This document shows, one piece after another, positions 52,505 through 64,000 of a stretch of 64,000 nucleotides of DNA. The DNA is from Escherichia coli. Its GTDB lineage: Bacteria; Pseudomonadota; Gammaproteobacteria; Enterobacterales; Enterobacteriaceae. The position numbers are program-made. How positions within the stretch are numbered: the stretch's first letter is position 1; the number at the start of each line of letters is the position of its first letter. The DNA is taken from assembly GCF_002854065.1 (NCBI RefSeq), contig NZ_CP024147.1; one strand, given 5' to 3'.

Positions 52505-55500
52505 TCTGATGAAAGCGGTTGATAAGTTCGAATACCGCCGTGGTTACAAATTCTCCACCTACGCAACCTGGTGGATCCGTCAGGCGATCACCCGCTCTAT
52601 CGCGGATCAGGCGCGCACCATCCGTATTCCGGTGCATATGATTGAGACTATCAACAAGCTCAACCGTATTTCTCGCCAGATGCTGCAAGAGATGGGCCGC
52701 GAGCCGACGCCGGAAGAGCTGGCTGAACGGATGCTGATGCCGGAAGACAAGATCCGCAAAGTGCTGAAGATCGCCAAAGAGCCAATCTCCATGGAAACGC
52801 CGATTGGTGATGATGAAGATTCGCATCTGGGGGATTTCATCGAGGATACCACCCTCGAGCTGCCGCTGGATTCTGCGACCACCGAAAGCCTGCGTGCGGC
52901 AACACACGACGTGCTGGCTGGCCTGACCGCGCGTGAAGCGAAAGTTCTGCGTATGCGTTTCGGTATCGATATGAACACCGACCACACGCTGGAAGAAGTG
53001 GGTAAACAGTTCGACGTTACCCGCGAACGTATCCGTCAGATCGAAGCGAAGGCGCTGCGTAAACTGCGTCACCCGAGCCGCTCTGAAGTGCTGCGTAGCT
53101 TCCTGGACGATTAATCGGTAGGCTGGATCAGGCGTTACGCCGCACCCGGCACCTGTCCCTTTGCACAAACGCCACCTTTTCGGTGGCGTTTTTTATCGCC
53201 CACGCACCACCAGCGCCTGGTCCAGCTCGCGATACGCTTCAACCAGTTTCTCCAGTGAAACGCGACTTAAACCGCTGGGATTTGGCAGCACCCAAATCTG
53301 CGTCGAACCAATGCTGAGCGTTTGTTTCCCCCACTGTGCACCGCGCTGGCTGAATCCCTGTTCATATGCTTGTTTGCCCAGAATCGCCAACGCTTGCGGC
53401 TGATAATCTTCAATTTTTTCAATCAGCTTACGCCCACCTGCGTGTAGCTCTTGCTTTGAAATTTCATTGGCTTTCACCGTTGGACGGTCTACCAGTTTGG
53501 TGACGCCACAACGATAATCCAGCAGATGCTGTGCCTCCTGCGGCTTCAACTGACGGTCGGTAAACCCGGCCTGATATATCACCTTCCAGAAGCGATTTGC
53601 CGGATGAGCAAAGGGAAAACCAGTCCCGGCGGATGAAAGCCCAGGGTTGATACCGCAAAACACGACCCGTAACCCTGGAGCCAAAATATCCTCAACCATA
53701 TTTACTCCTTTCTAACATCACCAGGAAAAGTATAACGGATTGAAAATACATTGTTTATAAAAACAGCAGGCGCGCGGTAATGGCTGGATTGCGACACGGA
53801 GTTACTTTATAATCCGCTACCATGGCCCCTTAGCTCAGTGGTTAGAGCAGGCGACTCATAATCGCTTGGTCGCTGGTTCAAGTCCAGCAGGGGCCACCAG
53901 ATATAGCAAAGGGTTAGCTAATAAATCAGCTAACCCTTTTTCTTTTGCCTTTGAATTGGGTCAGGTAATGGGTCAGGTAAGCTTTTTCTCCATCTGACTC
54001 AGATGGCTGATAGTTGCCCCGGATAATACTTCGCAATGATGTCATTTAGCCGATCAACCAGTTCTGGTTTTCTGAACGTGATATGCGCGGAGCCCTTCTT
54101 AAAGTATCTGATGCTGAACATCTCATCTTCATAGCAGGCTTTGCCCTGAACGGAGCGGATGTGATCATCCAGCCGAATAATGATATTTTCCCGGCTGTCG
54201 GGGATCGGTTTGCCGCTGAACAGGTGCAGCATTCTTTCCAGGTCGGCAAGTCGATCTGCCTGTTGCCCGGTGATAAGATGCAATCCCCACCGGTCCCACC
54301 TCACCAGATTGTTGACGATAATTTTACTGCCAAATTTACAGGGGCAATTGGTTTTGTAATCCCAGCTCAGTCCCCTGAAGACGTTGATGACCCCACGCTC
54401 AAACACTTCATCCTTATTCTGGTGTAGTTGCTCAAACGTACTCAGTATATTCTCTTCACTGATTTCCGGAAAATTATCGTACTCCAGTGACCGGTACCAT
54501 GTACCACGGGCCTGTGCATCCATTAAGGAAAGCATCCCTGAACGTTGCATCAGGTCACGCCAGATTTCACGGTCAAGGTTGCGGGTGATGGCTTTCATTG
54601 CCGTTTCAGGTTTCTCCATCAGCCAGCAACCGCAGCGAAAATCCTGTTTCATGGCCCAGTCCGGAGCAGTTTTACCTCCAATACTTTCTGTCATTGCTGA
54701 TATTTCAGCCAGTTGCCGGATAAGTGTGTCGATTTGCAGCAGTGTGCTCTTTCGTACAGCCAGAATGTGGCGGATACTGGTTGAGCAGATAACGTCCGTA
54801 TGCCCGTTGACCACTTCCGGACGGGCGATTGTGATGCCTGACATAATCGGTTTTCCTTTCTGTTTATAAATGAAAACGCCAGCCGTATTCAGGCTGGCGT
54901 CGGGGGAATGAAGTGTGGTGAGAAAGATAATGAGTGAAACTCACCGGTTCAGGTGCTGAAACTGCAGATGGCGCAGAGTTCGGACATCCTGTCGCGCCTG
55001 TTCGATACAGGGCAACAGTGCTGCCGAATCCGTTTTATCCTCATCGTTGTCAAAGATAATTTCCGATTCGCAGTCAATATTGTCCTGCAGCCACGCAATC
55101 AGAATATCCAGCGCCGTTTCTGTGGTTAATAATTTCATCCAGTGTCTTTTGTCCTGATTACCAGTCGAAAGTGGGGAACCCCGGCAGACATTCTGCGCTG
55201 GCGTCCAGATGAATGAGACTGACGCCATAACGCCGGGTGAGTGTGACAACCAGACGACGGAACGTTTTTGACAGGCCCAGGCGCTTAAGCCGCAGAACCG
55301 GGTATGACCACGCATCGGTACGTAACAGATAGCCGCTACCTGTGAAATGAATCCATTCTGATTCACCAACGTCACTGGTCTGGTGTGACAGCGAGTGCAA
55401 CCAGGCGTTGTCCGTTTCCGTGATATGTGCGGTACTGCAGCGTATGCCGGCAAGGGTTGCAAATGGCGGAGGTGTTCAGGTTGACTGTTGGTCGGATTCC

Positions 55501-61500: not shown

Positions 61501-64000
61501 CGGCACTGATAACCGTGTCTGAAACGCTTCCTCCGGCATTCACTCTCTGAAGACCACCACCGGTGACAGTAGTGTTGTTGGCGATACCGCCATTTTGTAT
61601 CCATTGTCCGCCGGTATTGGCCTCGTTATCCGGCCCATACTCCAGACCGGTACTGATGGTCATTCCGTTGGCCGTACCGAGAACAATCTGGTTGTCATGA
61701 TTTGTCAGTGTTCCGCCGCTCACGGTTTCTCCCGCCTGTACGACCGTGTCAGCAGCCAGTACCGGGACTGACGTGACAGCAGCAAGAGACAGCGCAACCG
61801 CCACACCGGTGCGTTTTCCCCGTGAGCGCGCCAGTTCGGAAGCCACCACCAGGGTGCCCGTAATGTGATTCCATACCAGCCTGTAGCTGGTGTTCAGATG
61901 TCGTTTCATCAGCTTTTCCTTACAGAGGGTGAATAAAAAAGCCGGTACCCACAAATGTGGATACCGGCAGGTACAAAACAGCATGGTCAGATAAAGTGGT
62001 TTTTCCCGGACATAAATGCTTCCCCTCTCTCATCCGCCAGAGAAGTATCAGTCCGTTGTGTGCAATTCCGTTCTGCATGATGAAGAGATTCAACTGCCTT
62101 TTCGCAGGCCATTAACCACTATAAACGATCGATAGCAACGATCGATACCTGTTTTATCGATTGTTTTACTCTATTAACAGCAAGACAGTCACGCAAGAGA
62201 AAGAGGTGGATATGAGGGGGGTGTATCATGTTTTCAGTTGGTTAACGCAATGTAATCAGGCATTTCCCTGGCAGACTGTTCAGAAGAAAATCCAGTTCCA
62301 TACAGCGCGGGCAACAGAGACCACCGAGTCACGGACGGCACGCAGAACCGTGCGTGCAACAGAGGCAATACAGACGCTCTCCGCCGTGTCAAATATCCGG
62401 TCCACCGCACCGGTAAACTGTTCACGGGCCTGAGACCGGACAGATTCCGTGCGCAGCTCGTCCTGCAGGCGGGTCATCAGGGGACTGGCGGCATGGTCGG
62501 GAAGCGCTGTCATGAGCGCACTGACCAGCGTATCCAGTTCCCAGCCGGTGCAGGCCGATACGGCCACAACCGGATGTACGGGCCGGAACAGCCGGAATAC
62601 CGCATCTGTTTTCTCACGAATGTTCTGTGCCTGTGCGGGAGAAGGCTGAATGCCGGCCATATCCCATTCATGGCAGGGCTCCGTTTTGTCGGCCTGCGTC
62701 ACCACAAACAGCACCTGCTGATGTCCCCGGTGCAGGATGTGTCGCCAGAAATACTCATCCACAGACAGGGCACGGTCATCGGCTTTAATCAGCCACAGTA
62801 CCAGGTCCAGTTCAGGCAGAATGTCACGGTACAGAGCTTCATACTCTGCATCCCTGTCCCGACTCTCGCCCACCCCGGGCAGGTCAGTGATAACCATGCT
62901 GTGACCGTGGCCACTCAGACGGAAGCGCCGCACTTCCCGGGTGCCGGCGTGAACATCACTGACCGGGGTGACCTCCCCCTGAAACAGTGCATTACAGAGT
63001 GAGGATTTACCGGCCCCGCTTTTACCCATAATGCCAATCACGGGTTCGTGACTGGTGAGTTTGCGCAGATGTTCCAGGATGTGACGGGAAAGTGAGTAAG
63101 GCAGGGAGGAGAGCGGTTTTTCAATTGCCTCAATGGCATCAGACGGATTCATACATGTATTCCCGGTGAAAAAAGACAAAACCCCGCGCACCGGAAAGGT
63201 GGCGGGGGATTCACGGAGATAATATCTGTCTGAAATTATTTAGAATGCACCTGGTGCACTGCAAAGGAAAGGCAATATTCCGTTCCTCCTCCTTGTCGTG
63301 AATACCCCAGGTATCTCACAATATACACCGACTTACTCCGGGGCTGCCTGAACCACAAGATTGCTGTAGAATTGCCCCCAATGATTCAGGTCCAAACCAG
63401 GCAAATGGATTAAAAATGACAAGTATTCAACAACGAGCAGAACTGCACCGCCAGATATGGCAAATTGCCAATGATGTCAGAGGTTCTGTTGACGGATGGG
63501 ATTTTAAGCAATACGTTCTGGGCGCACTTTTCTACCGTTTTATCAGCGAAAATTTTTCCAGCTATATTGAAGCCGGTGATGACAGTATCTGTTATGCGAA
63601 ACTGGATGACAGCGTAATTACTGATGATATTAAAGACGATGCCATCAAAACCAAAGGCTACTTCATCTACCCCAGTCAGCTTTTCTGCAACGTAGCTGCG
63701 AAAGCAAATACCAATGACAGACTGAATGCGGATTTAAACAGCATCTTCGTTGCTATCGAAAGTTCTGCTTACGGTTACCCTTCAGAAGCTGACATCAAAG
63801 GTTTGTTTGCTGATTTCGATACCACCAGTAACCGCCTGGGTAACACCGTTAAGGATAAAAATGCCCGCCTGGCCGCGGTTCTGAAAGGGGTTGAAGGGTT
63901 AAAGCTTGGCGACTTTAACGAACATCAGATTGACCTGTTCGGCGATGCCTATGAGTTCCTGATTTCTAACTATGCCGCGAATGCCGGTAAGTCAGGCGGC

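Follow-up and report, generated by a model that had tools for sequence, protein, structure and literature searches.

We analysed a stretch of 64,000 nucleotides from Escherichia coli (contig NZ_CP024147.1, hereafter the window), the right-hand part of which carries one end of a putative integrative island at ileX, a gene for tRNA-Ile(CAU). On the plus strand rpoD (51273–53114), mug (53193–53699) and ileX (53824–53899) follow one another in the same order as in K-12, and the open reading frames (ORFs) of 613 and 168 amino acids (aa) located 5’ of the tRNA gene are rpoD and mug, as they are in K-12 and all related genomes that we examined. The integration target ileX is the sole tRNA gene that ARAGORN detects in the window (anticodon CAU, plus strand). 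It matches Rfam family RF00005 with 73 bits, its RefSeq homologue is annotated as tRNA-Ile, and its sequence is base for base that of K-12 ileX. On the 3’ side of ileX eleven genes on the minus strand and one on the plus strand extend up to the edge of the window.

Island boundary and empty ileX sites

Aligned to the empty sites of K-12 and strain CUWW06, the window is identical throughout the tRNA gene and for 13 nt past its CCA end (GCAAAGG, 53912), and diverges from 53913 on. The terminal 60 bp of this identity (53853–53912, plus strand) reach from position 30 of the tRNA, in the anticodon stem, to 13 nt beyond CCA; in the left attachment site (attL) they form the identity block, of which an exact copy exists on the side of the right attachment site (attR) in strains 571 and ET846. 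The block is followed, with a slight overlap, by the intrinsic terminator of the rebuilt ileX (53908–53946, plus strand), a predicted hairpin (12-bp stem, 8-nt loop) that ends in a U-run and has a folding energy of -17.4 kcal/mol (z = -3.7). From 53913 onwards its sequence departs from both empty sites, that of K-12 and that of CUWW06. The native ileX terminator folds at -21 kcal/mol, and because its sequence is unlike that of the hairpin at 53908–53946, we assign the latter to the island. The original prediction had taken this hairpin for the native terminator and let the island start at 53947. Both statements have to be corrected: as judged from the alignment, the island begins inside the tRNA gene and the terminator at 53908–53946 replaces the native one. 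The 3’ part of ileX in the window is identical to that of the native gene and hence indistinguishable from it by sequence.

In K-12 only 53 bp lie between the CCA end of ileX and the stop codon of the converging gene nfeF (= yqjH, b3070), in agreement with the gene order of K-12 given in the original prediction. At base resolution, K-12 and CUWW06 show tRNA gene, terminator and nfeF stop codon in one contiguous, scar-free arrangement at the empty site. We determined how widespread the two arrangements are with three junction probes of 700–1900 bp in 5426 complete E. coli genomes. The uninterrupted mug-ileX-nfeF junction was found in 4955 genomes (91%), the mug-ileX-DUF4942 junction of the window type in 345 and the integrase-fragment-nfeF junction in about 455, and from these three counts the ileX site is occupied in about 6–9% of complete genomes. 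CUWW06 and 100416, the two complete genomes with a core identity of about 100.0% (window 29000–53900), both have the empty site, again with 53 bp separating ileX from nfeF, and the island block therefore represents a difference at the strain level. Sequence comparison thus identifies the block at 53853–64000 as a real accessory insertion at ileX, as had been predicted, and it is not present in all lineages of E. coli, which would have made it part of the core.

A much higher figure, 1712 genomes covering at least 80% of a 10.9-kb query, was rejected as a measure for the prevalence of the ileX island. Only 8% of this query consists of mug and ileX, so that the count includes paralogous copies of the island backbone at other loci. 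The backbone module as such is present in 3640 genomes of the 5426 (median copy number 3).

Far ends and tRNA variants in related islands

The best overall match among complete genomes (97.1%) is strain 571, in which an island of about 37 kb ends beside nfeF. The island of ET846 is about 61 kb long and has the same two ends, the far one again beside nfeF, with different cargo between them. In both strains the nfeF side carries a 438-aa tyrosine recombinase, two uncharacterised genes, an AlpA-family regulator, and YfjI-like and inovirus Gp2-like genes. Between the start codon of the integrase and nfeF we found the exact 60-bp copy of window 53853–53912, followed by the native terminator of the K-12 type. 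The recombinase consists of an Arm-DNA-bind_3 domain, a central domain and a catalytic (Phage_integrase) domain and is by this architecture classified as a P4-type tyrosine integrase. It shares 24% identity with IntA of K-12, and its best phage match is at 38.7% identity (Providencia phage), so that it has no close phage relative. The ORF carries no pseudogene flag in either strain. The suggestion that mobility genes would lie at the distal end is thus borne out in the related islands, where integrase, AlpA gene and ileX fragment are located beside nfeF, 37–61 kb away; the corresponding end in the source strain of the window lies beyond the window.

The two uncharacterised genes that adjoin the integrase encode proteins of 198 aa and about 545 aa (27974–30294 of locus L002 in 571, 16260–18574 of locus L007 in ET846). 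Both lack an NCBIfam match and form part of the conserved backbone near the integrase, as opposed to the variable cargo. A copy of the same integrase with an ileX-type fragment is also present at 1934122–1935740 of NZ_CP028166.1, where nfeF is not adjacent; this copy may be integrated at ileY or rearranged.

Cargo differs strongly between the two islands. In strain 571 it comprises hsdMSR, insertion sequence (IS) elements, the pgaABCD operon and a GGDEF-domain protein, in ET846 it comprises hsdMSR, pepT-dcuC and several sugar-utilisation clusters. Both island ends are conserved and the middle varies among strains, which fits the earlier description of the site as a hot spot for strain-specific cargo. 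The pgaABCD operon of 571 and the adjacent GGDEF gene (36889–44988 of locus L001) are bracketed by IS1 and IS5 and constitute biofilm-related cargo. As a chromosomal pga locus is also present in E. coli, the pgaABCD operon of this island would be a second copy.

Direct evidence for the origin of the 3’ part of the tRNA gene comes from two variant tRNA-Ile(CAU) genes, ileX of ET846 (19725–19800 of locus L003) and ileY of ET791 (7004–7079 of locus L009). In ET846, ileX carries island-type substitutions from tRNA position 50 on and a different 3’ flank, while the fragment at attR is native. ET791 harbors the ET846 island, with identical protein accessions, at ileY in the ygaQ-glaH-lhgO neighbourhood of K-12 ileY, and its tRNA gene joins an ileY-specific 5’ base (T6) to the island-type 3’ part. 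Both genes have the T stem GTTGG/CCAAC as opposed to GCTGG/CCAGC, a compensatory exchange of C-G for U-A, and two T-loop bases differ as well; in the acceptor stem of the ET791 chimera U6 pairs with G instead of A. The 5’ part of the tRNA gene is native to the respective locus in both cases, ileX in ET846 and ileY in ET791, and from these chimeras it is directly evident that the 3’ part of the tRNA originates from the island. Strand exchange would accordingly be placed between tRNA positions 30 and 49 (window 53853–53872), a segment that includes the anticodon loop (53855–53861).

ET846 and ET791 come from the same sampling source (frog faeces, Shantou) and carry the same island end, once at ileX and once at ileY. 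Sequences resembling tRNA-Ile(CAU) were also noted on some E. coli plasmids, with 88–94% identity over 47–77 nt; examples are NZ_CP194962.1 (243 kb) and NZ_CP077453.1 (93.6 kb, from an O111:H8 strain), and one of these sequences is annotated as tRNA-Ile.

Just inside the island terminator of the window there are two direct copies of GGGTCAGGTAA with a spacing of 12 bp (53958–53980, starts at 53958 and 53970, plus strand), which we regard as candidate arm-type (P’) sites. They are the only exact copies in the 64-kb window. In 571 and ET846 the pair recurs beside the integrase, at distances of 137 and 149 bp from the repeat towards the island interior and about 50 bp upstream of the integrase start, and it is also present at the ileY-integrated copy in ET791; elsewhere in the loci searched, empty-site stretches included, the motif does not occur. 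With equally oriented pairs flanking the core, the arrangement is probably the one expected of arm-type integrase sites in the attachment site of the circular element (attP).

Gene content of the island end

The families named in the original prediction were all found at their places, by Pfam and NCBIfam searches and, for Ag43, through RefSeq homologues. For the small island proteins NCBIfam was informative only for the RadC-like protein and the GTPase, and the other families were assigned via Pfam. Closest to the tRNA lies the last gene of the island backbone, which encodes a DUF4942 protein of 281 aa (53999–54844, minus strand; PF13708, E = 7.5e-68). It is followed, likewise on the minus strand, by a small DUF957 protein of 65 aa (54941–55138), which has no Pfam match and was assigned by the RefSeq annotation of homologous genes, alignment and translation. 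A 189-aa ORF with a GTG start at 54941–55510 (minus strand) is an artefact: only its last 65 codons (54941–55138) are the real DUF957 gene, and the remainder overlies the reading frame of the neighboring DUF5983 gene. This YeeW-like gene (55158–55646, minus strand) is broken. Alignment to intact genes revealed an in-frame TGA at codon 57, located in a locally divergent patch, which leaves open a 56-aa N-terminal ORF (55476–55646) matching DUF5983_N only. The gene is intact (162 aa) in ET846 and 571 and is probably a pseudogene in the source strain.

A CbtA-family type IV toxin of 125 aa (55643–56020, minus strand; PF06755, E = 2.9e-56) and a CbeA/YeeU-family antitoxin of 117 aa (56109–56462, minus strand; PF06154, E = 4e-51) come next. 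The two genes are adjacent and on the same strand with the antitoxin gene upstream, by which they are classified as a predicted CbtA/CbeA type IV toxin-antitoxin pair. The backbone continues on the minus strand with a YeeT-like DUF987 protein of 73 aa (56542–56763; PF06174, E = 2.9e-36), a RadC-like JAB-domain protein of 158 aa (56850–57326; PF04002, E = 6e-43; TIGR00608, 150 bits, above the cut-off), an antirestriction protein of 161 aa (57341–57826; PF03230, E = 2e-35) and a YfjQ-like DUF932 protein of 272 aa (57917–58735; PF06067, E = 1e-49).

An autotransporter adhesin of the Ag43/Cah family is encoded at 59063–61909 (minus strand, 948 aa by translation). Its name rests on the RefSeq annotation of homologous genes in related genomes, which are recorded as 948-aa Ag43/Cah. 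The likely start is the methionine of MKRHLN at 61909, which yields the 948 aa, and the maximal ORF reaches 61984. Between this gene and the GTPase gene further upstream, the leader contains a match to the IS102 RNA family (61928–62164, minus strand; RF00124, 71.5 bits with a gathering score of 46), directly upstream of which there are two GATC sites 13 bp apart. We take Ag43 with an IS102-family RNA upstream to be the arrangement of CP4-44 in K-12, and the leader with its GATC sites is presumably similar to the Dam/OxyR phase-variation region of flu in K-12, where three such sites are present.

The GTPase is a YeeP/YfjP-like protein of 290 aa if started at MNPSD (62280–63152, minus strand; MMR_HSR1, E = 3e-13); its homologues are 290-aa GTPase family proteins, and the maximal ORF reaches 63191. 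An assignment of this GTPase to the Leo system was rejected, as the similarity to LeoA and LeoBC in PADLOC is weak (E = 1e-8 and 5e-5). The first cargo gene is also the only gene of the island on the plus strand, hsdM, of which the window contains the N-terminal 194 aa (63416–64000, open at the window edge; TIGR00497, E = 2.8e-68; PADLOC MTase_I models). With 230.9 bits it stays below the TIGR00497 cut-off of 242.75 bits because the protein is cut by the window edge. In strains 571 and ET846 hsdM is followed by hsdS and hsdR. HsdM was the sole defence-related flag that PADLOC raised among the scanned proteins of the window.

Outside the island, a short segment between the cca and bacA homologues (41358–41527) did not align to strain 571 in megablast, between flanks of 98% identity, and probably represents a repeat element that varies at this intergenic site.

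Origin of the island end and relation to known elements

Taken together, we consider it highly probable that window 53853–64000 is the attL end, with the intact tRNA, of an integrative island that was put into ileX by a P4-type tyrosine integrase. The attP of the circular element would carry a copy of the 3’ part of ileX, from the anticodon stem on, together with a terminator of its own. By strand exchange within or beside the anticodon loop, the chromosomal 5’ part of ileX would then be fused to the 3’ part and terminator of the island, so that the tRNA gene stays intact, while the native 3’ part and native terminator would be displaced to the far end beside nfeF/yqjH, where the integrase gene sits. 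The GGGTCAGGTAA pairs flanking the core would be likely arm-type integrase sites, and the visible 10 kb would correspond to the conserved distal backbone of CP4-44/CP4-57-like islands, with variable cargo starting at hsdM. The island of the source strain would then reach nfeF and retain its integrase. We infer, too, that the integrase binds the repeats, where exactly it cuts, and that the island can presently be excised. In line with this reading, the attL of the window equals that of strain 571 over all 177 compared bases.

Several observations weigh against it. The 64-kb window contains no second tRNA 3’ end (a search for the 25-mer of the 3’ end, with up to 3 mismatches, gave a single site) and no integrase, as had been noticed originally, which bears on the completeness and mobility of this copy. 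Look-ups of exact proteins to reach beyond the window, with the 948-aa Ag43 variant and the DUF4942 protein, found no record, and among complete genomes no match to the island part exceeds 97.1%. Furthermore, the G+C content of the island region (0.47–0.59) is not distinctive with regard to the core (about 0.50–0.55), and the status as an island rests on the comparison of genomes and not on composition. Finally, identity to strain 571 is 98.4% at 56499–64000 and 94% at 53100–56490, and the tRNA-proximal 2.5 kb are nearer to paralogous islands at other loci (97.1%) than to the ileX island of 571 (94%). Homologous recombination among paralogous islands has therefore altered the element, be it following a single integration event or in place of one.

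Part of these observations would also be explained if the element had integrated at ileX and later lost or rearranged its integrase end, leaving a decayed and now immobile block. Besides the missing integrase, the premature stop in the DUF5983 backbone gene and the richness of related islands in IS elements and pseudogenes are compatible with such decay, and the unequal junction counts (345 of the attL type, about 455 of the integrase type) imply that the two island ends are not always found together. We nevertheless regard a remnant as possible but rather unlikely, since both complete relatives examined have an integrase free of a pseudogene flag and an exact att repeat, and the attL of the window is undamaged, candidate arm sites included. 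The similarity of the tRNA-proximal 2.5 kb to copies at other loci, together with the abundance of the backbone (median 3 copies in the genomes that harbor it), could instead point to homologous recombination or inversion between paralogous CP4-like islands, in which case the DNA to the right of the window would stem from another chromosomal region; translocation between ileX and ileY with genome rearrangement has been reported for O121:H19 (PMC8767318). This origin appears very improbable to us, as the first 100 bp past the tRNA, with terminator and arm motifs, are specific for ileX/ileY islands and identical to 571, and the 98.4% identity at 56499–64000 is to an island located at ileX itself. 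That the block is ancestral core DNA lost by K-12 and its relatives has nothing in its favor except its presence in several hundred genomes, and is refuted by the 91% of complete genomes with an uninterrupted junction, the scar-free sites of K-12 and CUWW06, the genomes with a near-identical core that do not have the block, and the duplicated tRNA fragment and integrase at occupied sites.

The preferred reading, an integrated island seen from its intact-tRNA end, agrees well with what has been published. Islands at tRNA genes (tDNA) are described to split the tRNA gene upon integration and to restore it, with the displaced fragment marking the other end (PMC4383910); this pattern is exactly that of 571, ET846 and ET791, and the window holds one of the two ends. 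SpLE1-like integrative elements have been reported at ileX/ileY in Shiga toxin-producing E. coli (STEC) O121:H19, and the same paper states that the two genes share their bacterial attachment site (attB; PMC8767318), which agrees with our observations on ET846 and ET791. Modules of the Locus of Adhesion and Autoaggregation (LAA) pathogenicity island next to ileX include Ag43 (PMC5539235, PMC7545054). Among the genes at 53999–64000 we found neither the SpLE1-like markers ter, ure and iee nor the LAA markers hes, iha, lesP and pagC. Cargo in the window opens with a type I restriction-modification gene, and our comparison with the published elements covers gene content and locus. The temperate P2-like phage 186 also attaches at the tRNA-Ile(CAU) genes ileY/ileX (PMC3448106), but Pfam detected no phage structural, lysis or replication families among the window genes, nor were any present in the annotation of the related islands.

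In backbone the island corresponds to CP4-57 and CP4-44 of K-12, which show the same order of integrase, AlpA, YfjI, GTPase (YfjP/YeeP), DUF932, antirestriction, RadC-like, DUF987, CbeA-type and CbtA-type genes. By Pfam and by comparison of gene order with K-12 CP4-57, this set of genes was found in the window in the same order and on a single strand. The two differ in target, which is ssrA for CP4-57 and ileX for the island of the window, and in polarity. The intact ssrA of CP4-57 has the integrase as its neighbor, and the displaced fragment lies next to the toxin-antitoxin end. The ileX/ileY islands are arranged the other way round: next to the intact tRNA gene lies the DUF4942/toxin-antitoxin end, and in 571 and ET846 the integrase is found beside the fragment, for which reason no integrase had been seen beside the tRNA in the original prediction. 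We found no source that tabulates the position of the integrase relative to the intact tDNA, and the Islander paper (PMC4383910) does not state it. One might speculate that the integrase subfamily of ileX/ileY islands has the tRNA-like attP segment in an orientation opposite to that of the canonical CP4/P4 arrangement, that in consequence the DUF4942 end and not the integrase end rebuilds the AUA-decoding tRNA-Ile2 with its terminator, that variants rewrite T arm and acceptor pairing as in ET846 and ET791, and that all this is undescribed and has functional consequences. We think this quite unlikely as a whole, and an earlier description of the reversed polarity or the tRNA editing seems likely. 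If it were true, effects on the level or modification of the tRNA would be possible, or a coupling of island retention to tRNA function.

The element is therefore of a known and ordinary kind, sits at a published integration site and is not new, and it neither opens nor resolves a long-standing question. Only the reversed polarity and the tRNA variants encoded by the islands are mildly unusual. For the genome at hand it means that the last 10 kb of the window are strain-specific mobile DNA and not core, with the true boundary inside a tRNA gene. The 60-bp repeat, the GGGTCAGGTAA pairs and the integrase beside nfeF provide a recipe to delimit the whole island: if the preferred reading is correct, the far end should show GACTCATAATCGCTTGGTCGCTGGTTCAAGTCCAGCAGGGGCCACCAGATATAGCAAAGG, the native terminator (CTGACGAGAAATCGTCAGCC) and nfeF, with the GGGTCAGGTAATGGGTCAGGTAA pair about 140 bp inside the repeat. 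The visible cargo, with Ag43, CbtA/CbeA, antirestriction and type I restriction-modification genes, is standard for islands of E. coli, and features of strain-specific interest would be located in the island middle, which differs widely between strains.

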